From NCBI GenBank assembly GCA_028714495.1, contig JAQTMH010000003.1:72496-136495 (forward strand): 64,000 nucleotides of DNA. Reading direction: 5' to 3'. Below the pieces are notes generated by a model, which saw nothing but the letters and a program-made list of their open reading frames with translations, was not told the origin of the DNA and did no database searches. Every line of letters starts with the position of its first letter. Position 1 is the stretch's first letter. Below, piece after piece: positions 23,032-34,289 of this stretch. A program made the translations under genes and the position numbers. This DNA is from Patescibacteria group bacterium (GTDB lineage: Bacteria > Patescibacteriota > Patescibacteriia > JAHIZJ01).

Positions 23032-23937
23032 TTAGAGACTAGGCCGGGTGTCTCGGAGATATTCCATGAAGTACTGGGCATCTCGAGTACAACCCTTGGG
23101 CAGTCGTGGAACATCGCGGCACAGCACTGGCCGACCCGAGCATTCGCCCACTGCCTGCCAGAGCTTGATGCTCTGATCCAGCACAAACCTGGAAAAATCA
23201 ATCACGCAGTCAGTCGGAATCGAAGCGCCGCTGATCGGATCGCCGAACGGCAGGCAATACGGCAAAGCCACTTCTGGCTCGCACGGAATCACCTGGCTAT
23301 CAACCCGACGACCTGCGGTCCTCCCGGATAAAGGAACGCCGACATAAAAGTCCCGCTCGCAGACCCAATCAACTACAGCTGGGTACTCGCGCACACCGAC
23401 CAGCTCCACCCATGGATGCTTGGCCAGAAGCTGGTTTTCCGGCCGGCCAATGATTATCCCGACGATGACTTGACTGACCACATAGCCATTTTCCCGCATT
23501 AGTTCGGTTATCCGAAGCAGGGTGCCGCCTGAATAGCAACCGTCGTCAACCAGTGAAATCGGACGACCCTTGGGTAAAGATCTGATTTGGTCAACTAATG
23601 ACTCGAAGCCGGCACGACGCGATTCGCCTAGAATCTGGGTCGTGCTGATATCAGCCACGCGGTTGCACTCCAGATGATAGGGCGTCTGGTTGTAGATCTG
23701 GTCGATCGAGACAACGATCGTTCCGGCGGCTCGGGCAGCAATCGCGGCTTGCAGTTTTCCGCTCAAATCAGCCAGTTCGATAAGTTCAAGCGGCCGAAAG
23801 ATCGTTCGCAGATAGCCAAGCAGCTCCTGCTGGAGGGTCCGGAAAAAGTCCGAACTCGGACAGCTGAAGCCAACACGCTCGGCCCATCTGCGCATGAGGA
23901 ATTCCAGATCCTCGGTTACGAGGTAGGGTGGCTTCAT
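23032..23937 (-). CDS. Type I phosphoribosyltransferase-like protein
   Basis: PRPP-binding-like motif ISLVDDGCYSGGTL; overlaps the upstream gene by 4 nt (ATGA). Confidence 0.7.
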   Translation of the reverse strand: MKPPYLVTEDLEFLMRRWAERVGFSCPSSDFFRTLQQELLGYLRTIFRPLELIELADLSGKLQAAIAARAAGTIVVSIDQIYNQTPYHLECNRVADISTTQILGESRRAGFESLVDQIRSLPKGRPISLVDDGCYSGGTLLRITELMRENGYVVSQVIVGIIIGRPENQLLAKHPWVELVGVREYPAVVDWVCERDFYVGVPLSGRTAGRRVDSQVIPCEPEVALPYCLPFGDPISGASIPTDCVIDFSRFVLDQSIKLWQAVGECSGRPVLCRDVPRLPKGCTRDAQYFMEYLRDTRPSL

Positions 23938-24773
23938 GCTCTCCTCCTTTTCCCTAAGGGTTTCGTGGAAATCCGCTGTAGGATTTCCAGAGCTCCAGCT
24001 GTGATCGGCTCCGTAGCCACAAAGTCAGCGACCGCCTGTAATTCAGCGGCAGCATTGCTGACAGCGCAAAGTAGGTCTACATGTCCTAAGAGCCTGGCGT
24101 CGCTCCTGCCATCGCCAATGGCGATCACCCTGTATCCACGATACTTCCGCCGTAGCACGGGAACGGCAAGCTCTTTGTCTAACCCGGCACTTGATAGAAT
24201 CAGCACACCACATTCAGCATTGGCATCGATGTCCACCAACTCGGTTATTCCCAGTCTATCGAGAACCACTTTCACGGTCCCGACCACGCTGGGATAAGCT
24301 CCATAATCAGGAGTCAGCTGGTTTGTCCAGACATGCAGGCCAAAGCCACAGAGACGGAATGGATTGATGACAATCATCGTGCCTGACCGCGCATCTAGCC
24401 CGCGTTGGTTCGACAGGAGATCAAGGTAGTATTCCTCAGTCAGGGCGAAGTCTGGAAAAGCGCTCCGGAGTGAAGATATAATCAGCTGCTTGACCGAATG
24501 CCAGCCGATTACCTGCTGTCGAGTAAGTAGGTGACTGCCGGACAGCGTCGAGACAATGGCTCCTTTTTCACTGACGATCGGACCGGTAAAACCGAATATC
24601 CCCATCCAGCGCCGAAGCGGCTCATACGGAGTATCCGAGTTTAGCCCGAAAAGATCGCCCGCCTCCATCATCTGTCGAACCAATAGTTTGAACGCGTCTA
24701 GCTGGATTGTCGGCTGATAATCCCGACCGATAAGACTCATGTCGAGATCGCAGAGAATCAGTCTGGGTCTCAT
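23934..24773 (-). CDS. HAD superfamily (IIB/Cof-like) phosphatase
   Basis: ILCDLDMSL, NSD, SEKGA, DK, AIGDGRSD, VSNA. Confidence 0.85.
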   Translation of the reverse strand: MRPRLILCDLDMSLIGRDYQPTIQLDAFKLLVRQMMEAGDLFGLNSDTPYEPLRRWMGIFGFTGPIVSEKGAIVSTLSGSHLLTRQQVIGWHSVKQLIISSLRSAFPDFALTEEYYLDLLSNQRGLDARSGTMIVINPFRLCGFGLHVWTNQLTPDYGAYPSVVGTVKVVLDRLGITELVDIDANAECGVLILSSAGLDKELAVPVLRRKYRGYRVIAIGDGRSDARLLGHVDLLCAVSNAAAELQAVADFVATEPITAGALEILQRISTKPLGKRRRA

Positions 24774-25783
24774 ATGGCCACCTCAGCCAGCGAAGAGATT
24801 AGGCGACCGGCCTGTTCCTGCATGGCTTCGATCAGCCAGACCCGTTCAGGATCTAGACAATAGTCACAACGGCAGGCGGCATAGGCACTGTAGTAGACCG
24901 CGCAGCACAATTCATAGAGCTGAGGCGTAAATATCCCCGCCTCAATCATCAGTTGCCGTGCCCTTTTGATTCTGCGCAAGGCGCCAAGATGGAATACAGA
25001 TCCCACAGTCTTTCTGATCTCCAATTCCTTGCGTCTGAGCGAGGCTTCGAGAGCGGCTAGGTCAACTGCGATGTTTCCGTCCGCCAAGCGCTCTTTGGAC
25101 CAAGGCAACGCCATCTTCGGGTCAATGAATCTGACCCGTGGCTGGTCAAGCGATTCGCTAACCAGCACATTGATAGCGACATTATCTTTCAGCGCCATCG
25201 AAGAAGACCAGCGTTCGAAAAACCAGGGAAAACGCTTTTGCAGCCGATCCAGCGCTGGGTTCAATCCGGTCATTTTCGCCCTTTCCAGATTTACCCGAAA
25301 CGCGCTCAGGCATTCCTGGAAAAACGTCTCTTGATCGTCTTGATTGCCGCGACTGGTCAAACTGTAGATCATTCTCAGCTTGTCAATCACCTGGCCGACG
25401 ATGTTGCCGATCTGAGATTGGCGTCGCTGGATGATTGGATGGTGACACGGCAGTGTTTCAAGCCATTCGCACAGGTCCAGGCAAATCGCCTCAAGCGTCC
25501 GTTCCCCCGCCACTTCCAGAAACAGCACTCCTTGATCATCCGTTTGGTTGACGAGTCGAAAATCAGGCAGAAACTCACCATATCGATCACCCAGCCGTGC
25601 CTGAAGAGTCCGATAAGCAGCCACATCGCCATTCAAGATGTCCAGCCGGCCGGCCTTCACCACGCCCCGGACCAGAAATGTGTCAGCGCCAGAAGCACCC
25701 TCTTGCCTGTCAAATGTCATCAAGCTGACTGCCGCTGATGCCGAACCAATCAAACCCTGCTTTGCTAAACCCAAGAATTCCAT
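24770..25783 (-). CDS. Kinase-like (APH/phosphotransferase fold) protein with C-terminal CxCxxC
   Basis: GASGA loop, VVK, LFLE, LKDNVAINVL, FIDP, DLA; SD GAGGAGG. Confidence 0.55.
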   Translation of the reverse strand: MEFLGLAKQGLIGSASAAVSLMTFDRQEGASGADTFLVRGVVKAGRLDILNGDVAAYRTLQARLGDRYGEFLPDFRLVNQTDDQGVLFLEVAGERTLEAICLDLCEWLETLPCHHPIIQRRQSQIGNIVGQVIDKLRMIYSLTSRGNQDDQETFFQECLSAFRVNLERAKMTGLNPALDRLQKRFPWFFERWSSSMALKDNVAINVLVSESLDQPRVRFIDPKMALPWSKERLADGNIAVDLAALEASLRRKELEIRKTVGSVFHLGALRRIKRARQLMIEAGIFTPQLYELCCAVYYSAYAACRCDYCLDPERVWLIEAMQEQAGRLISSLAEVAI

Positions 25784-25939
25784 GGTCTCCCCTCCTCGTT
25801 TGTTGGTCAGTTTTCAAAGAGCCATTATAGTCAATGAGTGACTAGCAAATTTATTCGAGCCGTTTCCTTTAGTCTTTCATCAAATCAATGCTTCAGGTAT
25901 TCAAGGGAATTTAGTATATATAATCCAGTTTGTCAATGC

Positions 25940-27058
25940 TTAAGAAACCAAAGCATTTTTCTGCAATATTATGGCTTGTTTTAACACCTCGAAACTGGCT
26001 GGCCTCAGTTCCCAAATCACGCACAATTTACCATCGCTATTGGCGCTGATCATCTCCAGAACCGTCTTGGCTGATTTGAAAACAAATCCGACTGGAATGT
26101 GGTCGTCAATTACCACATCCCTGACGATTTGCCGCTTGTACCAAAAATCCGCTTTGGCTTTTTTGAGCTGATCCGGGCTGGCTTCTTTCGTAAATTCTTT
26201 GGTTGTCAGAGAATCAGACAGGTGCACTGCTTTTATCCTTTTTAATATTTCGGGATTATCAGCAAGTTCCTTTTTAATTCTCTGGTCAATCGAATCCGGT
26301 CTATCACCTGCTTCTTGCCCTAACACCGCAACACTGTGTGCTGTATCAAAAGTAACACCTACTTCATTTAAGTCACGGTTTATAAATATTTCCCTAAAAT
26401 CCGCCAGCCGCCGCACGCCCCTATCAATCGCACTGCCGTTTTCAAGCGTTAATAGTTTGGCAAAACCAGAATCGCGCTTTATCAAGTCTTCGGTAAATTG
26501 CCGAACTGCGCTGATCACTGCCTGATCAGAATATTTCCGATCGCCAAATAAAATATCATCATAATCAATCTGATTCGCGTGCCAAGTAGCAACCCTGGCA
26601 TCCAGCTCGCCAGCGATATCTAACTCTCTAGTTAAACGTTCAATCATTACTTCTGGTTTATCGCCGCTGAAATATTTTCGGACATTGGCTGGAGTATAAA
26701 AAGTACGCAGCAATCTCGCCTGATCTTGCTTGTAAAAAGGTATCCAGCTGGCCCAGTCTGATAAGTGGACAGTTAAATTTCCCTGAAATCTGATTTTCTT
26801 CAGCGGATTTGGATCAAAATTCTCGGTAAAACCGATAAAATCCTGGATCCGAATTTCCATTCCGTCAAAGCCCTGTTCCAGGCACCAGTTTTCAATTCTC
26901 GACAAATCCCTGTTAAACTCCTTGATAATCAGTGAGTTGACTGACAACAGCTGAAATCTGGCCGACTTTTCTTTCTTCCAAAGCAAATCAAAGTCTGCTG
27001 GCGGTTTGAGCGCCTTGAACTTTTCCTCGATTAATTTGTCTTTGCTGGTTAATTCCAT
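25940..27058 (-). CDS. TIM-barrel metalloenzyme (xylose isomerase/AP endonuclease 2-like)
   Basis: GMEI, VHL, TWH, LEN, FDTAH, VHLSDS, DDH, WEL metal-ligand pattern. Confidence 0.8.
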   Translation of the reverse strand: MELTSKDKLIEEKFKALKPPADFDLLWKKEKSARFQLLSVNSLIIKEFNRDLSRIENWCLEQGFDGMEIRIQDFIGFTENFDPNPLKKIRFQGNLTVHLSDWASWIPFYKQDQARLLRTFYTPANVRKYFSGDKPEVMIERLTRELDIAGELDARVATWHANQIDYDDILFGDRKYSDQAVISAVRQFTEDLIKRDSGFAKLLTLENGSAIDRGVRRLADFREIFINRDLNEVGVTFDTAHSVAVLGQEAGDRPDSIDQRIKKELADNPEILKRIKAVHLSDSLTTKEFTKEASPDQLKKAKADFWYKRQIVRDVVIDDHIPVGFVFKSAKTVLEMISANSDGKLCVIWELRPASFEVLKQAIILQKNALVS

Positions 27059-27063
27059 ACAGG

Positions 27064-27822
27064 TTATTTGCTTAAAAGTTCAACCGCCCGTAAAGCAACC
27101 TTGATAGCTTTATCCACGCCTTGATCTGCCTCGGCTGAAGTCTCCAATTTATAAATTAAACCGGGGTCTTTCGCAATCTCGTCCAGCGGTTCAGTGGTAT
27201 TGACCGATAAAACCGTGCCGGCTTTTAAACCTCGCAGCTGGGCTAGCGTAAACACAGCCGAGCATTCCATTTCCGAACTCACTAGCTCGCCTTTTTTATA
27301 TTCAGGCAAATCCATCAGTTTTAAGAAATTATCAGTTGGCTCGTAAAATGAATCGTGCGTGCGGTTTGTGCCGATGAAATATTTAATATTTAATTCTTCA
27401 GCTGCTTGCTTCAAAGCCCGAAACACCTCAGGGTCGGGTTTGGCTTCGAATTCCTCGCCGACATATTCTTTGGTGGTGCCTTCCTGTCGGATCGCCTTAT
27501 CTGGAATAATTAAGTTCCCTGGAACAATGGTTTTCTTCAGGGCGCCGCAAGTGCCAATACGGATGAATATCTTGGCGCCTACCTTAGCCAGCTCCTCAAC
27601 GGCAATGGCCGCCGAGGGAGAACCAATGCCCGTCGAAGTGGCGGAAATTGGAATGCCTTTATATTTACCCGTGTAGGTCAAAAATTCCCTGTTAAAAACA
27701 ACCTCACGGGATTCGTCCCAATATTCGGCGATTCTCCTAACTCGAGCTGGATCGCCTGGAATCAAAACAATTTCGGCGATATCGCCTGGTTTAATTCTCA
27801 GATGTGGTTGTAAATTTTCCAT
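27064..27822 (-). CDS. Nucleoside phosphorylase (NP-I, Udp/DeoD family), substrate uncertain
   Basis: PGDPAR, NREF, STGIGSPS, RIGTCG, EME. Confidence 0.9.
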   Translation of the reverse strand: MENLQPHLRIKPGDIAEIVLIPGDPARVRRIAEYWDESREVVFNREFLTYTGKYKGIPISATSTGIGSPSAAIAVEELAKVGAKIFIRIGTCGALKKTIVPGNLIIPDKAIRQEGTTKEYVGEEFEAKPDPEVFRALKQAAEELNIKYFIGTNRTHDSFYEPTDNFLKLMDLPEYKKGELVSSEMECSAVFTLAQLRGLKAGTVLSVNTTEPLDEIAKDPGLIYKLETSAEADQGVDKAIKVALRAVELLSK

Positions 27823-27840
27823 TGGTTTGCTTTATTTATT

Positions 27841-28115
27841 AAAAAACTCTCATTCCTCGACAAGTTATTAAAAATAATAACTAGCTAAGGAACGAGAGTT
27901 TACTCCCGCGGTCCCATCCTTATTTCCGGTCTTTACCTTAAATCAGGCAACAACCAGACACTTATTTCAAGCTTCACGATGCGTGACCACCGTTCCCGGT
28001 TTTGACCGGGACTGCTTAAGAGGTGTGTTCAATGGTTTTCTGGGCCTGGCTTCCACTGTCCCAAGCTCTCTATTCAGCCAGAAATGGCCATTTACTATGC
28101 CTCTTTGTTAGCGCA
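27841..28115 (-). promoter_or_regulatory. T-box riboswitch, His specifier (CAC), with terminator/antiterminator
   Basis: Stem I has AGTA, AGAGA and GTGGAA motifs and GAA-CAC-A (CAC at 28025-28027). Stem II and III are present. T-box AATAAGGATGGGACCGCG lies at 27907-27924. Antiterminator is AAGGA-TGGGACC-GCGGGAG/CTCTCGT-TCCTT; terminator is AACTCTCGTTCCT...AGGAATGAGAGTT plus T-run. Confidence 0.92.
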
Positions 28116-28143
28116 TTTGAATTAAATTATCAAGGTAAATATA

Positions 28144-28188: not shown

Positions 28189-28222
28189 AAAAAAAGCCGT
28201 TGAGCAAGTTACTCAACGGCTT
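28189..28222 (-). terminator. Intrinsic terminator ending the hisS transcript
   Basis: AAGCCGTTGAG-TAACTTG-CTCAACGGCTT followed by a T-run; overlaps the hisS stop. Confidence 0.8.
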
Positions 28223-29600
28223 CAAGAAGTGAACGAATGTGCGAAATCAATTGGTCGCGCGGAACCGAGTGCTGTTTGCCTGCTGCGCCGAATGTGGTCC
28301 GGAGGTTCTTCACGGAAGCTTCGCCTCGGCTGAGCTCATCAGGACCGACCACGATCGCGATCGGTATCCGCTGAACATCGGCGTATTTGAACTGACGGCC
28401 GATGCGCGTTTCCTCACCCATGTAGAGCTCAGTATTCAGGCCCTCTCGTCTAAGCTCCGTGGCCAGCTGCTGGTAGACACCCAACTGGTTTTGATCAAAG
28501 ACGGTGACCAGAACCTGGGTTTTGCTAGGCGCTGTTCCAACCAAGCCGAGCTGTTCCAGGGCGGCGAAGAGCCGATCTACGCCGATCGAAGCACCGGTAG
28601 CAGGAATGCTGGTTTCGCTGAACCGGCCGATAAGTCCATCAAACCGTCCGCCGGAAAACACGCTGCCCCAGGTCGGCAAATCCAGAAGCCTCGTCTCAAA
28701 CACCGGACCGGTGTAGTAAGCCAGACCTCTGGCAATTGACAGGTCGATGATGAAACGCTCGGGCGGGATGCCTTGGGCTTTGAGTCCGGACAGAATCTGT
28801 TCCAGCTCGACGATCCCTTCGTCAACGGCCGAGCAGCCATTGAAGAAGCGCCTGAGCTGTTCGATCGTCTCAACCGGACTTCCTCCTGAAATGCCGACGA
28901 ATTCCATAATCCGATCAGCAATTTCCGGAGCCAAACCGATGCAGCGAGCACCGGCAGGTACTTCTCTCTGATCCACGCCTTCAGGCCCTTGCTTGGTCAG
29001 GGTGGCTTTGACTTCTTCGAGGCCGACTCTCTCGATCTTGTCTAGGGTCCGGAAGATGTCCGTGGCCCAGAAAGGATCGAGGCCCAAGAAAACCATCAAA
29101 GCGTTCAGGATCTTGCGGTTGCTGAAACGGATCAGGAAACGGGTAAGCCCCAGCTCAACCAAAGTGTCGTGGATGATGGCGATGATTTCAGTGTCAGCGG
29201 CCATTGAGCTGGTGCCGACAGTGTCAATGTCGAATTGCACGAATTCGCGGAAGCGTCCAGGTGCCGGTTCATCGCCGCGCCAGACCGGTCCGACCACGTA
29301 CCGTTTGAACGGTCGGGGCAGATCCGGGTACAGGGCGACAAACCGAGCCAGAGGTATGGTGTGATCGAAACGCAGTCCGGCTGGACGTCCTTCAGGATCA
29401 TCAAATCGGAAGATCTTAAGTTCGCTTGCATCAGTCTCTTCGCCGAGGAGAATCCTACGGTCTTCAATCGCCGGCGTCTCAATCGGTACAAAGCCATAGC
29501 GTTCATAAACGCGACGGATCTTCTCGATTAACGCTTGCCTGGCAATCATTTGAGCCGGCAGGTAATCTCGAAGTCCGCGCAGAAGTCGTGGTTCAATCAT
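28209..29600 (-). CDS. hisS: Histidine--tRNA ligase
   Basis: RGLRDYLP, ETPAIE, LRFDHT, GRFREFVQFDID, RGLAYYTG, GGRFDGL, GVDRL. Start moved to ATG 29600 because the track extension runs through a tRNA. Confidence 0.95.
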   Translation of the reverse strand: MIEPRLLRGLRDYLPAQMIARQALIEKIRRVYERYGFVPIETPAIEDRRILLGEETDASELKIFRFDDPEGRPAGLRFDHTIPLARFVALYPDLPRPFKRYVVGPVWRGDEPAPGRFREFVQFDIDTVGTSSMAADTEIIAIIHDTLVELGLTRFLIRFSNRKILNALMVFLGLDPFWATDIFRTLDKIERVGLEEVKATLTKQGPEGVDQREVPAGARCIGLAPEIADRIMEFVGISGGSPVETIEQLRRFFNGCSAVDEGIVELEQILSGLKAQGIPPERFIIDLSIARGLAYYTGPVFETRLLDLPTWGSVFSGGRFDGLIGRFSETSIPATGASIGVDRLFAALEQLGLVGTAPSKTQVLVTVFDQNQLGVYQQLATELRREGLNTELYMGEETRIGRQFKYADVQRIPIAIVVGPDELSRGEASVKNLRTTFGAAGKQHSVPRDQLISHIRSLLEAVE

Positions 29601-29638: not shown

Positions 29639-29716
29639 TGGGGGGCCGGACGGGAATCGAACCCGCGACCTCTTGATCCACAGTCAAGCGCTCTGACCAA
29701 CTGAGCTACCGACCCC
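29639..29716 (-). tRNA. tRNA-His(GTG), canonical with G-1:C73 and encoded CCA
   Basis: GGGGTCGG...CTTGA-CTGTGGA-TCAAG...GGTTCGATT...CCGGCCCC-CCA. Confidence 0.95.
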
Positions 29717-29741: not shown

Positions 29742-29815
29742 GGGGCGAGACGGGAATCGAACCCGCGACCTCTTGATCCACAGTCAAGCGCTCTGACCAA
29801 CTGAGCTACTCGCCC
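29742..29815 (-). tRNA. tRNA-His(GTG) variant, no genomic G-1 and no encoded CCA
   Basis: D, anticodon and T arms are identical to the other copy. Acceptor is GGGCGAG/CTCGCCC with C73, C at -1, then AGT. Confidence 0.88.
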
Positions 29816-29858: not shown

Positions 29859-31478
29859 CTAGAGCGCCGCCGCAACCGCTTGCCGCAAAGCGCCGCTCTG
29901 GATCAGCTTCAACATCTTCTGATGGTCAGCCATGAGGAATCGATCATCATTCATCTCCTCGATGGCCGACCGGATCACCTGAAGGGCGACACTGGTACCG
30001 CGACCGAGCTTCGGATCATTGAGCGACTTCTGAGTCAGAGTAATGCCCTGGGCCGCTCCGATGAGCTCCCACGCGATCACCGCGAAAGCCAGCTCGATCA
30101 CCCGACGCATGTGCCGAGCCGAGATTGAAGCCATGCTGACATGATCTTCCTGGCCAGCTGAGGTCGGGATCGAAATCGCCTTGGCTGGATAGCACATTAC
30201 TGCGCATTCAGCGACTAGGGCAGCCACCGCGTATTGGGCAATCATTAGCCCGGTATTGAGGTCTGACTCACCAGCCAAATCAGCTGGCAAGCCATAGCTC
30301 GATTCCGGGTTCAGCAGAGCGTACAAACGAGAGTTCGAGATGTTAGCCAGGCACTGGGCGGCCAGTTTCATCTGCTCACTGGCATGCCCGAGCGGTTCTC
30401 CGTGGAAATTGCCACAAGACACTGCGACAAACTGCTCGCCAACTTGGAAGATCAGCGGATTGTCAGTCGCCGAGTTTGCCTCGATTGACAGAGCTTCCTT
30501 TGCCCGATCAATGATTTCTCTGACCGGGCCGGCCACTTGCGGATAGCACCGGTAAGAATAGGCGTCCTGAACGCGCGGCACCTTCAGATCATTCGGCTGA
30601 GACTTCACATGCTCAGCTGGCAAATCGACCAGTCGACAAGCATGGGTCATCCGCTCTGAACCAGCAGTCAGCTGACGAATCTCTGCTGCCACCTGGATCT
30701 GACCCGGATAGGGTCTGGCCAGGTGAACCCGTTCGTCAAACGCAGCTGTCTCACCGCGGATCGCTTCGAGCGAGAGCGCAGCTGCCAAATTCGAGTACCA
30801 AAGCAGAGACTCAAGGTCAGCCTGTCCCAGAATTGCCTGGGCCAGAATGAAAGTCGAACCATTGGTCAGAGCCATGGCTTCCTTGCCTTTGAGAACGATC
30901 GGCTGCAGATCAGCGGCAATCAGCGCATACTTGGCCGTCATGAATTCACCCTGATACCAGGCACGCTGTTCTTCCGATCCCATGAGCGTTGCCGAGACAT
31001 GCGCCAGTGGACAGAGATCGCCACTGGCACCGACTGAGCCGATCTGCGGAACATAGGGAATCACGCCGGCATTGTAGAGATTGACCAGACTCGCGCAGAG
31101 TTCAGGCCGTACGCCGGAATGCCCCTTGGCAAAGGAATTGGCCCGCAATACCAGTGCCAGTCTGACTACCTCGTCTGGGAACGGTTCGCCAAAACCAACG
31201 CAGTGAGCCGGAATGTAGTGCCTCTGATACGCGGTGATTTCTTCACCGGGAATCATGACGCACTTGCGACTGCCGCAGCCAGTGTTGAAACCATAGACCG
31301 CGTGATCTTGGCCGTAAGCGACCAGACCATCACGAAACTGACCAATCTCCTGCATTCTTTCCCCGGTGATTTCAACCCGGGGAAAAAGGTGAACGCCGGT
31401 AGCATCATCCTCACCCCGGGCTGCCAGAAGACAATCGGGCAAACCGAGATTTTCGCCATCGAGCCTGATATCGCGCAT
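29859..31478 (-). CDS. hutH: MIO-dependent aromatic amino acid lyase, histidine ammonia-lyase-like
   Basis: VYGFNTGCG, GSVGASGDL (MIO tripeptide ASG), QDAYSYRC, GNFHG, QEDHVSM; AAGGAG SD before ATG 31478. Confidence 0.85.
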   Translation of the reverse strand: MRDIRLDGENLGLPDCLLAARGEDDATGVHLFPRVEITGERMQEIGQFRDGLVAYGQDHAVYGFNTGCGSRKCVMIPGEEITAYQRHYIPAHCVGFGEPFPDEVVRLALVLRANSFAKGHSGVRPELCASLVNLYNAGVIPYVPQIGSVGASGDLCPLAHVSATLMGSEEQRAWYQGEFMTAKYALIAADLQPIVLKGKEAMALTNGSTFILAQAILGQADLESLLWYSNLAAALSLEAIRGETAAFDERVHLARPYPGQIQVAAEIRQLTAGSERMTHACRLVDLPAEHVKSQPNDLKVPRVQDAYSYRCYPQVAGPVREIIDRAKEALSIEANSATDNPLIFQVGEQFVAVSCGNFHGEPLGHASEQMKLAAQCLANISNSRLYALLNPESSYGLPADLAGESDLNTGLMIAQYAVAALVAECAVMCYPAKAISIPTSAGQEDHVSMASISARHMRRVIELAFAVIAWELIGAAQGITLTQKSLNDPKLGRGTSVALQVIRSAIEEMNDDRFLMADHQKMLKLIQSGALRQAVAAAL

Positions 31479-31524
31479 GACCGTTTCTCCTTTTGTGAGA
31501 AGCCCGCGAGCGACTGGTTTCGTT

Positions 31525-31554
31525 CTAGCAGTACGAGATTCCGTTCTCGGCCAT
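31525..31554 (-). CDS. 9-aa upstream ORF MAENGISYC
   Basis: GAGGAGGT SD 5 nt before ATG 31554; TAG at 31525-31527. Confidence 0.45.
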   Translation of the reverse strand: MAENGISYC

Positions 31555-31789
31555 AGACTGACCTCCTCGTGTTTGGATGGTTTGTTTGCGTAGTGGGTAA
31601 TTACAAGATAATCCTGCCCGCTTAACAAGCAAGATTATTGTCAATGTACTAGCTTTTCCAAGAATAACTCATCTTATCACGGGCCCAGAATCACTGTCAA
31701 TTAGCCCTTATGCACATAGCTTACTACATAATATTCTCAATAAAAAAGGCCGGGGGTTCATACACCCTGACAAAGTACTGGGTACGATA

Positions 31790-32559: not shown

Positions 32560-32718
32560 AAGTTAATATTTACTGGTATTTCTCGCGTTTATAAGTATAT
32601 CAAATAAATACGTATCAGGCATCTTTCTGTACAGCTATTTGACTGAATAAAACCAATATACTAATATGCCCGTGCGGTTGTTTTTTCCTTTTTGTACCTT
32701 CATCCCTGGGAGGGAAAA

Positions 32719-33141
32719 ATGGGTGAACCACGTGTTCCTTCTGGACTCGAAGATCTAGCCAGAGGCGCTTCTTACTCGCCGGCGATTGATCTGCCGCCTG
32801 GATCTGAGCTCGTACCCTTTTCCGGCATTGTCGATACACTTCAAGAAGGTGAAGAATCAATCCCTTCTGATCTAGCCTCCCAGACCAAACGCGTCCTTGC
32901 GAAGATGGTTTCGCAGGTTCAAGCTATGGGCTTGACCGCGAGCAACATTGTCAAGGTTACCGTGCTTCTCGTCTGTCCCAAGTCTGAGTTCCCAGTGTTC
33001 AACAAGGCCTGGACAGAATTCTGGGGTACGGCTTTCCCGCCTTGCCGCCGGGCCCATGGCGTAACCTGGGTACCAGGCACTGGCACGCTGATCGAAGTTG
33101 ATCCGATCGTGGTCCGTTTCCCAGAAGAGCCGACTGCCTAA
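32719..33141 (+). CDS. Rid (YjgF/YER057c/UK114) family protein
   Basis: YSPA, FSG, QT, IVKVTVLL, FNKAW, PPCRR, LIEVD; GGAGG SD before ATG 32719. Confidence 0.82.
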   Translation: MGEPRVPSGLEDLARGASYSPAIDLPPGSELVPFSGIVDTLQEGEESIPSDLASQTKRVLAKMVSQVQAMGLTASNIVKVTVLLVCPKSEFPVFNKAWTEFWGTAFPPCRRAHGVTWVPGTGTLIEVDPIVVRFPEEPTA

Positions 33142-33257: not shown

Positions 33258-34289
33258 TTAGGAAAAACTTAACTCACCCGGATATACCCAAATTTCCTTG
33301 AAGTTTTTTAGAGGTATTAGATCGGATTTCACAACCTCATGATCCTGGTTTTTAATTTGCTCAAACTGCTTGGGCGATAGAATTCGGTCAATATAACCGT
33401 CTCCCCTCTTTTCTAACACGCCAAAACCGGTCCAGAATTTCGCTACTGAATTTGAGGTTGTGCCGATTGGAATGGAATTATACTTGGGTAGCGGCGTGGC
33501 GGATAAATCAACCTTGCCTAATCCGCGTATCGCTTCATGAACCCGGGATAACCGGCAATAACCGTCATGGGCAATCGGGCCCATTTTTATTTTCTCCTGC
33601 TTCTCGTTCTCGTTCAGCCGCTTCCAATCTTCAGCGCCTTGCCACTGCAGATTAAGATTGGACGTTGCCTCTCTTTTTTTCTTGCGTTCTTCAGGCCAAT
33701 CTTTATATTCTTGCTTTACTTTATCTATAAAAGGCTCAAGTTCGTCGAGATATTCTTTTTCATTAGGATAAAGCTCGGCAAACGATCTTAATTCCAGCTT
33801 GATATTTCCCGGCAAATGCTCCAGAAATTCACCAAGTAATTTATTAAACGATTGGCGGTAGATTAAACAGTCTTTTTCCGGTATATTGCTCTGTCGTTTC
33901 ATAATTGAGGGATGAGCTGCCCAGTAGGTCATGATTACTCCAGGCTCATAAGCCTGCACAATGAGAGTAATGTATTTCAACATATAGCAAATATTAAAAA
34001 ATTCCGCCCAATCAACCTCCGGGGAGGTCTCAAAACTCCAGAGTTTATACCCGCCGAAAAAATAGGTAGTATTAATCGGCAGATGTTTAGTCACCGCATA
34101 GTGGATAGATTCTTTCAGCTCTTTAACGTAATCTTCACCGACCTTCCATTTGCGGAATTTTTTTGACATGAGACAGCGATAAATAAATGCTTCTGGTCCG
34201 TTTTTATCCAAAAATTCCCGGTCCGCTGTTTGCGGTTCGGTTTTGGAAGAATTTACTTTTTGACTTTTTAAATAATCCTCGACGGTCAT
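33258..34289 (-). CDS. Hypothetical protein, distant PvcA/Dit1 (isocyanide synthase)-like N-terminus
   Basis: LPI...FGGYK...PEVDWAE...AYEPGV. Start moved to ATG 34289 because the track extension overlaps tRNA-Gln. Confidence 0.6.
   Translation of the reverse strand: MTVEDYLKSQKVNSSKTEPQTADREFLDKNGPEAFIYRCLMSKKFRKWKVGEDYVKELKESIHYAVTKHLPINTTYFFGGYKLWSFETSPEVDWAEFFNICYMLKYITLIVQAYEPGVIMTYWAAHPSIMKRQSNIPEKDCLIYRQSFNKLLGEFLEHLPGNIKLELRSFAELYPNEKEYLDELEPFIDKVKQEYKDWPEERKKKREATSNLNLQWQGAEDWKRLNENEKQEKIKMGPIAHDGYCRLSRVHEAIRGLGKVDLSATPLPKYNSIPIGTTSNSVAKFWTGFGVLEKRGDGYIDRILSPKQFEQIKNQDHEVVKSDLIPLKNFKEIWVYPGELSFS

Follow-up and report, generated by a model that had tools for sequence, protein, structure and literature searches.

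A histidine-type T-box leader precedes a nucleoside phosphorylase operon, not hisS, in a Patescibacteria genome

T-box specifiers have been used before to assign functions to unknown genes. In Firmicutes, histidine (His) T-boxes stand on the his operon, the hisXYZ transporter and hisS, and according to PMC9413887 they interchange on the same genes with HisR (YerC), a TrpR-family repressor with the consensus operator cacTTTAnnnnnnTAAAgtg whose DNA binding needs histidine, as shown there for the R. gnavus protein. A related arrangement is the hdc island of Lactobacillus parabuchneri, in which, according to PMC5313534, hisS has a His T-box and a second His T-box stands on a peptide transporter and an M20 peptidase. 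Here we describe a stretch of 64,000 nt from a Patescibacteria group bacterium (assembly GCA_028714495.1, contig JAQTMH010000003.1, positions 72,496 to 136,495; the whole stretch is called the window below) in which a His-type T-box leader precedes an operon that begins with a nucleoside phosphorylase. The leader shares with the Firmicutes His T-boxes its transcriptional anatomy, its CAC specifier and a predicted induction by uncharged tRNA-His, but its targets differ, being a phosphorylase, a HAD phosphatase and a phosphoribosyltransferase (PRTase) in Patescibacteria-type genomes in which His-synthesis genes were not found. The riboswitch is of a known kind, and its target lies outside those described in the literature searched, which held no T-box or HisR control in Patescibacteria and no T-box on a nucleoside phosphorylase (the TBDB tables and the supplements of the HisR paper were not covered); the words 'phosphorylase' and 'Patescibacteria' do not occur in the main text of PMC9413887.

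The leader occupies positions 27841–28118 of the window (all features located below between 23032 and 31628 lie on the reverse strand) and consists of stem I, a short stem II, stem IIA/B, stem III and an antiterminator/terminator pair, as judged from the RF00230 match, folds and covariation across five loci. In a permissive Infernal scan, RF00230 matched 27885–28118 over model positions 1–219 at 90.6 bits (E = 2.5e-20). Because this score falls just under the Rfam gathering score of 93 bits, the scan at the gathering threshold reports no T-box in the window, and the default search misses a leader that covers the full model. The T-boxes of relatives score 77–89 bits, and two of 14 control genomes rise above the gathering cut-off. 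In the genome of the window (1.17 Mb, 98.9% complete) it is the single convincing T-box, the runner-up reaching 17 bits. Stem I has the AGUA/GAA motif, the distal motifs and the specifier loop of the family, and the antiterminator has the 7-nt UGGN bulge and is exclusive with an intrinsic terminator, with the caveat that stem II is short and has no AGUA S-turn. The specifier CAC (28025–28027) sits in the loop GAA-CAC-A. The antiterminator (27886–27922) reads AGGA-UGGGACC-GCG and folds with a 7-nt bulge, in which UGGG occupies 27916–27913 and the variable base is the G at 27913. The terminator (27841–27901) contains a hairpin at 27901–27844 of −30.6 kcal/mol (z −8.7, matched by 0 of 200 shuffles), and its U-run ends at 27841, 18 nt before the phosphorylase ATG at 27822. 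A preliminary description of this DNA, made by eye from the letters, had proposed an intact T-box with a CAC specifier and a UGGG bulge, a terminator ending about 18 nt ahead of the phosphorylase, and an upstream hisS with a terminator of its own; the covariance model and the folds bear out all three, the hisS terminator (28193–28223, overlapping the last hisS codons) being the hairpin 28223–28193.

All six full-length leaders that we collected have CAC in the +0 specifier frame. This register is calibrated within the class by a GAA-CGC leader before the argininosuccinate synthase gene argG (loci L013, L014 and L024; L numbers denote loci and G numbers the genomes of relatives, G000 being that of the window) and by a GAA-CCC leader before the glutamate-kinase-family gene proB (L019). 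Among the 48 tRNAs of G000, C73 is confined to the three tRNA-His, and both tRNA-His(GTG) genes beside the leader carry it, as the variable G would require. The preliminary description counted the specifier and this complementarity as two independent His signatures. Both are present, but they are less independent than claimed, because C73 can pair within the tRNA and because both shifted specifier frames read Thr (ACA), with a U73 in tRNA-Thr that could wobble with the G. TBDB leaves the discriminator pairing unused for His T-boxes on the first ground, the pairing of C73 with G-1 (PMC7778990). Taken with its gene context, the leader is very probably His-specific and regulates the phosphorylase rather than hisS, which would make the module behind it His-regulated.

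The arrangement recurs in relatives. A T-box immediately precedes the phosphorylase in five loci: the window, G001 (another genus of the same family), G661 and G122 (two other families) and the metagenome locus L122. All five leaders have a GAA-CAC-R specifier loop and UGGG. Their alignment contains 38 pairs; 95% of cells are paired, and both partners have changed in 20 pairs, a value that none of 500 shuffles reached. Slid controls gave one to four such pairs. CAC and UGGG are invariant across the five aligned leaders, four of which come from three families. The sixth full-length T-box, in G742, lies directly before a HAD–PRTase pair, with a HisR-type box immediately in front of it. The first gene behind a full-length His T-box is hence a phosphorylase or a HAD gene in every case, not a gene for histidyl-tRNA synthetase (HisRS), His biosynthesis or His/peptide transport, which agrees with the earlier proposal that the leader controls the phosphorylase and not hisS. 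No T-box precedes any hisS in the six genomes scanned whole, and hisS is absent among the 26 downstream open reading frames (ORFs) read from 29 T-box loci of the class (two of the 26 not confidently called; the three loci without a downstream ORF read have a Phe specifier). In G122, no hisS lies in the 12 kb of sequence available for the locus. At E ≤ 1e-4, 55 of 151 class genomes have T-box matches; two of 401 phylum genomes contain the exact UGGG motif (that of the window and G479, there before a tRNA-His gene), and a T-box pattern scan of viral contigs returned 0 matches.

The phosphorylase (27064–27822, 252 amino acids) belongs to the nucleoside phosphorylase I (NP-I) family by Pfam PF01048, its structure model and pocket conservation, and forms a subfamily of its own with the motifs NRTHDxFYE, SSEMECS and VNTxE. 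The model has a mean predicted local distance difference test (pLDDT) score of 95.7 and matches the hexameric NP-I enzymes closely, with Z 36.0 to the Thermus thermophilus purine nucleoside phosphorylase (PNP) and 35.8 to the Streptococcus pyogenes uridine phosphorylase (UP) and a root mean square deviation (rmsd) of 1.5 over 232 residues. The NP-I phosphate- and ribose-binding residues (H/G/R/R/R/T/EME) are all kept, and the catalytic NP-I residues are invariant. In contrast, the base pocket differs from those of Escherichia coli Udp and DeoD. FYEPTDN stands in place of the Udp FYPGQER and VNT in place of the DeoD VSD, so that the positions of Udp Q166/R168 hold T163/N165 and that of DeoD Asp204 holds Thr209, in line with the preliminary description, which had read FYEPTDN and VNT where the Udp Q-x-R and the DeoD Asp would be. 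Scores against the curated families are below their cut-offs (Udp TIGR01718, 214 bits against 280; DeoD TIGR00107, 120 against 232). By residues and family cut-offs the enzyme is neither Udp nor DeoD; a plain Udp, which the preliminary description had named as an outcome that would undo its reading, was not what we found. In place of the usual base-binding residues, R154, H156, N165, T209, E211 and Y224 are kept in 59–61 of 61 sequences with the FYE pocket, and E161 is also invariant. That two acids and an Arg/His pair in the pocket could hold an amino-acid side group is a guess. The family is rare (18 of 401 class and seven of 401 phylum genomes at E ≤ 1e-60, more distant phosphorylases included), and the closest named homologues of the island genes are from Patescibacteria.

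We collected 106 loci through the phosphorylase, of which 105 clustered with it; the phosphorylase tree is the result of a quick search, with two fragment rows excluded. Once copies more than 95% identical were removed, the FYE pocket was present in 61 loci, a group that is partly defined by selection because the metagenome search used the FYE motif. Thirty FYE-type loci have at least 3 kb on each side; 23 of them contain a His marker (hisS 17, tRNA-His 12, hutH 9, yerC 6, T-box 3, hisD/I/G 2), and 22 have a PRTase or HAD gene within 6 kb. In the sister group (FYG/FYA) a His marker is present in ten of ten loci. The conserved unit is thus the phosphorylase with a Cof-type HAD phosphatase (23934–24773; family matches and locus survey) and a type I PRTase of an uncharacterised family (23032–23937; profile and model), which is wider than the phosphorylase–TIM-barrel pair of the preliminary description, the HAD and PRTase genes lying outside the span (25940–28115) considered there. 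The PRTase model (pLDDT 96.4) has the type I core and the PRPP loop LVDDGCYSGGT (PRPP, phosphoribosyl pyrophosphate); its best match is an orotate PRTase (Z 11.8, rmsd 3.8 over 121 residues), and the searches brought up no closely related solved structure.

An independent query with the PRTase profile recovered 26 of 401 class genomes, seven of which also have the phosphorylase. Nineteen PRTase loci had not been found through the phosphorylase; 16 of them have a His marker within 6 kb, 14 have a SLOG cluster-4 gene (PF18306, TIGR00725-like, distantly LOG-like), one combines a nucleoside hydrolase with HAD and ribokinase genes, and four have neither SLOG nor hydrolase, one of these being a weak and probably unrelated match. 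Conversely, SLOG cluster-4 occurs among phosphorylase loci in L162 only, and weakly in L163; a second SLOG type is present in four more, and none was found in G000. Phosphorylase, SLOG and nucleoside hydrolase therefore replace one another beside one PRTase. By family, all three, which are unrelated enzyme types, would break the N-glycosidic bond between base and ribose, as LOG/SLOG phosphoribohydrolases do.

The TIM-barrel gene lies 5 nt behind the phosphorylase (25940–27058, 372 amino acids) and is of the AP-endonuclease-2 type, with nine invariant His, Asp or Glu residues in endonuclease IV order across 31 sequences; five align to E. coli Nfo, endonuclease IV (hhalign, probability 96.5), and four are placed by order only. 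It scores 30.0 bits against PF01261 (cut-off 31.1), a profile search found no solved relative, and its distant relatives are in Bacillota. It follows the phosphorylase in the window, G001 and L056, and five further homologues apparently share a genome with a phosphorylase homologue, which is an indirect link. Of the T-box-controlled pair proposed in the preliminary description, only the phosphorylase belongs to the conserved set; the TIM barrel comes behind the T-box in two of six full-length T-box loci and is accessory, predicted to be a metal-dependent hydrolase or epimerase acting on the same ribosyl intermediates. A second accessory gene (24770–25783) encodes a 337-residue protein with a CxCxxC tail and no Pfam match; on our own reading of its motifs (family pattern HxDxxxxN and DP, with LKD in the window copy) it may be kinase-like, of the aminoglycoside-kinase kind. 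Across the loci, GNATs, aspartoacylase-like and M20 deacylases, this kinase-like family and racemase-like genes recur.

A second regulator points the same way. Of 58 non-redundant loci for which upstream DNA was available, nine have yerC and four a His T-box immediately ahead of the phosphorylase. Of the 17 yerC genes found in phosphorylase loci, ten have an upstream box with at most three mismatches to the HisR consensus; of 1,082 other ORFs, 16 do. Operators matching cacTTTAnnnnnnTAAAgtg overlap the promoters of yerC–phosphorylase and yerC–SLOG–PRTase operons. L094 has two perfect boxes, one of them 17 nt before the phosphorylase ATG, and L056 has the same five-gene operon as the window (phosphorylase, TIM barrel, kinase-like, HAD, PRTase) headed by yerC. 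Operators of this type at promoters are what the module loci have in common with the described HisR regulon; they differ from it in that no his biosynthesis or transporter targets were seen there, no HisR-type box was found near the window's own operon, and a second palindrome type occurs (L055, L056, L167 and L168). Both T-box and HisR would imply expression when His is short. In two other yerC loci with HisR boxes (L218 and L219), SLOG is fused to an aspartoacylase-like deacylase, followed by a GNAT and the PRTase. The TrpR-family gene of the window's genome (G000:C3:14939-15187) is distant from the island, and the palindrome that flanks it is of another kind (ATGCTATATAGCAT-like).

The island of the window reads, in order, hutH, two tRNA-His, hisS, T-box, phosphorylase, TIM barrel, kinase-like gene, HAD and PRTase. 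Its hisS (28209–29600) encodes a second HisRS, 24% identical to the housekeeping copy (G000:C3:183183-184442) and in a clade apart from it on the tree. When this HisRS was modelled in complex with the PRTase, on the idea of a HisZ/HisG-like pair, the score was 0.00, which speaks neither for nor against such a pairing. The neighbouring tRNA-His(GTG) genes are at 29639–29715 (G-1, C73, encoded CCA) and 29742–29815 (no genomic G-1, C73, no encoded CCA), with the third tRNA-His elsewhere in the genome, and a histidine ammonia-lyase (hutH)-like gene assigned by family matches lies at 29859–31628, its true start probably near 31478. Island tRNA-His often have no genomic G-1 (window 29742-29815; L008, L009, L085, L091, L160 and L161), and some have A73. 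A stand-alone urocanase (G000:C1:80815-82458) is also present in G001, with no other hut gene recognised beside it. HutH and urocanase would drain His and thereby account for the spare HisRS, the additional tRNAs and a switch that senses starvation, an argument made before for the hdc island. Like that island (PMC5313534), this one is apparently mobile and combines an enzyme that consumes His with a tRNA, a spare HisRS and a His T-box placed on genes for scavenging. It differs in that HutH is the consumer, no T-box stands on the spare hisS, and the genes for scavenging encode ribosyl-bond enzymes. Genes hisG, hisD and hisA/F and a PRPP synthetase gene were not found in G000, whereas the same searches were positive in 14 of 14 control genomes; in the five genomes tested, hisG and hisD were found in none and a clear hisA/F in one. 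PRPP synthetase was not found in G661 either.

We propose that uncharged tRNA-His would open the terminator and switch on the phosphorylase and TIM-barrel genes, and that the phosphorylase, within a module with the HAD and the PRTase, would release His or a close imidazole from an N-ribosylated form; as a whole we give this an even chance of being right. The HAD would convert a ribotide (base-ribose-5-phosphate) to the riboside and the phosphorylase the riboside to base and ribose-1-phosphate, while SLOG, where present, would cleave the ribotide directly. The PRTase would either make the ribotide from PRPP, for trapping or hoarding, or break it with pyrophosphate, and the latter direction is favoured in G000 because no PRPP synthetase was found. 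The base would be His or a near-His imidazole, since the operon is tied to His by its switch and lies beside a second HisRS, an extra tRNA-His and hutH. The exchange of the phosphorylase for SLOG or nucleoside hydrolase adds support to N-ribosyl release, but judged by itself this chemistry could equally go either way on the sequence evidence. A wider formulation, held tentatively and with somewhat less than even confidence, is that the loci represent an undescribed branch of His metabolism in Patescibacteria and DPANN-like archaea, in which free His or a near imidazole would be handled as a nucleotide: a dedicated PRTase would interconvert it with an N-phosphoribosyl form, and the HAD with a dedicated phosphorylase, a SLOG or a nucleoside hydrolase would free the base, under a His T-box or HisR and in an island with a second HisRS/tRNA-His pair.

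Several observations weigh against this proposal. A bond-making PRTase under common control with bond-breaking enzymes would resemble a futile cycle if it did not run in reverse, and in L081 and L088 a PRPP synthetase gene within the cluster suggests a forward (trapping) PRTase. The kinase-like/HAD/PRTase trio may have its own promoter, given a consensus match at 25908–25936 (TTGACA-17-TAAATT), and differs in GC content (0.53–0.56 against 0.43–0.46). The palindrome of the L056 operator is not that of the published HisR consensus. Six of ten long loci in the 'other' phosphorylase group have a His marker and four have hisS, which makes hisS proximity alone weak evidence; those hisS copies of this group that were placed on the tree cluster with the housekeeping enzyme. 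A subclade of eight of the 61 FYE sequences sits with NIF3 and an alanyl-tRNA synthetase (AlaRS)-like gene, mostly with no His marker. The missing Q-x-R does not by itself exclude uridine either, because 4lnh, a Vibrio fischeri protein deposited as a uridine phosphorylase, lacks it too. We know of no abundant natural source of ribosyl-His. His-ADP-ribose (His-ADPR) is a phage-triggered signal in bacteria (bioRxiv 2024.01.03.573942) and ribosylhistidine appears mainly in metabolomics papers, and either would first have to reach these cells. The type II Thoeris work does establish that bacteria can make ADP-ribosylated free histidine, but unlike that system our loci contain no recognised TIR or Macro gene, and none of the seven module proteins matched a PADLOC model at E ≤ 0.001, which sets aside a known anti-phage defence system.

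The main rival is resistance to a His analogue, followed by a generic ribose donor. In the former, a His-like antimetabolite or HisRS inhibitor would leave tRNA-His uncharged, the induced enzymes would modify it (PRTase, GNAT, kinase-like) or cleave it (phosphorylase), and the second HisRS with the extra tRNA-His would provide a bypass. A divergent second HisRS with tRNA-His genes, many of them without genomic G-1, fits a detoxification island of this kind, as do the recurrent GNAT, AspA/M20 deacylase, kinase-like and racemase-like genes, and it would explain the joint induction of bond-making and bond-breaking enzymes. However, HisR-type operators sense free His (PMC9413887), which a HisRS inhibitor would not lower; hutH and urocanase already account for a spare HisRS, as in the hdc island (PMC5313534); and no such inhibitor was identified. 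We regard resistance as unlikely, though worth keeping in view.

Less likely still is an ordinary phosphorylase of broad specificity that would supply ribose-1-phosphate, and then PRPP, to a PRTase which alone handles the His-type base. The enzyme is the sole NP-I member found in G000, the solved structures nearest to it are those of T. thermophilus PNP and S. pyogenes UP, and some loci contain PMM-like, PRPP synthetase and ribokinase genes. But the failure to find PRPP synthetase in G000 or G661 does not suit such a route, and the private invariant pocket, together with the swap with SLOG (by family no ribose-1-phosphate donor), fits a dedicated base.

A biosynthetic cluster that would use His-tRNA from the second HisRS to make a His-containing nucleoside or ribotide, either a signal or an antimetabolite, we consider improbable. 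The company of PRTase, kinase-like, GNAT, deacylase and phosphatase genes may bring peptidyl-nucleoside clusters to mind, but a terminator-type T-box turns genes on at His scarcity, the wrong time to spend His, and the gene content outside the core is variable.

Disposal of AICAR (the ribotide of 5-aminoimidazole-4-carboxamide, AICA) or other ribosylated intermediates of His biosynthesis has hardly any credit left, and the AICA-riboside suggested in the preliminary description is an unlikely by-product of the cell's own His synthesis, because the His-synthesis genes were not found in G000 and hisG and hisD in none of the five genomes tested. The association that recommends it is confined to a few archaeal-looking loci (L108, L113, L114 and L120), where hisG, hisI, hisE and hisD lie beside the module.

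Two explanations of the leader itself fare worst. That it reads tRNA-Thr, through ACA or ACG in either neighbouring frame and a G:U wobble with the U73 found in all three tRNA-Thr, is highly improbable and was rejected: the thrS leaders of the class carry a UGGA bulge, the argG and proB leaders fix the register, and context and the HisR swap point to His. An orphan left behind when hisS was relocated, the alternative raised in the preliminary description, fits the adjoining hisS and a phosphorylase–TIM block lower in GC than its flanks, but is the least credible of all, because the leader is kept with compensatory changes and a fixed CAC and UGGG on the phosphorylase in the window and four further loci, recurs on HAD–PRTase in G742, and was not seen on hisS in the six genomes scanned whole or among the 26 downstream ORFs read.

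The His T-box and HisR operators independently tie three uncharacterised families to His shortage: a phosphorylase subfamily now labelled 'uridine phosphorylase', the PRTase and SLOG cluster 4. For the proposed release of His or a close imidazole, this regulatory tie narrows the candidate substrates to a short list, which three small soluble proteins would suffice to test directly. Should histidine be the base, the module would represent new amino-acid salvage or storage chemistry. It might also serve as a sink for conjugates of the His-ADPR type, and would hint at how auxotrophic epibionts cope with an amino acid that they apparently cannot make. If the proposal is true, no T-box on nucleoside-type enzymes and no enzyme devoted to ribosyl-histidine was, to our knowledge, described before. 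Should the chemistry prove different, control by T-box and HisR in Patescibacteria would still be without description in the literature searched.

Some further observations concern related loci. A short T-box type, with a small hairpin, CAC in a 7-nt loop and the same AGGAUGGGACCGCG, occurs in L111:1150-1330 (forward strand) and L242:11925-12185 (reverse strand, in G479); it precedes PRTase–phosphorylase–hisS in L111, where the terminator is unclear, and a tRNA-His gene with an uncharacterised 227-residue ORF in G479. By eye, valS and aspS leaders (L020, L021, L023, L025, L030 and L031) resemble T-boxes with a short stem I and have Val or Asn codons in small loops. The NIF3-linked phosphorylase subclade (L058, L062-L066, L070-L078, L086 and L164) lies between a NIF3/DUF34 gene and a convergent gene like the AlaRS catalytic domain, near sulfatases, an NMT1-type ABC system and leuS. 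In L104 and L106, two Nudix genes and a CYTH gene precede yerC and tandem phosphorylases, behind which lies a D-Ala-D-Ala dipeptidase-like gene; a Nudix enzyme would supply the missing step from an ADP-ribosyl conjugate. The archaeal-looking loci L108, L113, L114, L115 and L120 join the module to hisG, hisI, hisE, hisD, an SSF transporter, SLOG and several uncharacterised families, and hisA/F/H/B/C were not recognised in the DNA around the module. In G000, ARAGORN lists a tRNA-Ile(TAT) and no tRNA-Asn among the 48 tRNAs, which may reflect assembly gaps. Finally, the window also encodes a 343-residue protein with no Pfam match behind tRNA-Gln (33258-34289) and a Rid-family gene (32692-33141), and relatives of both lie near the G001 island.

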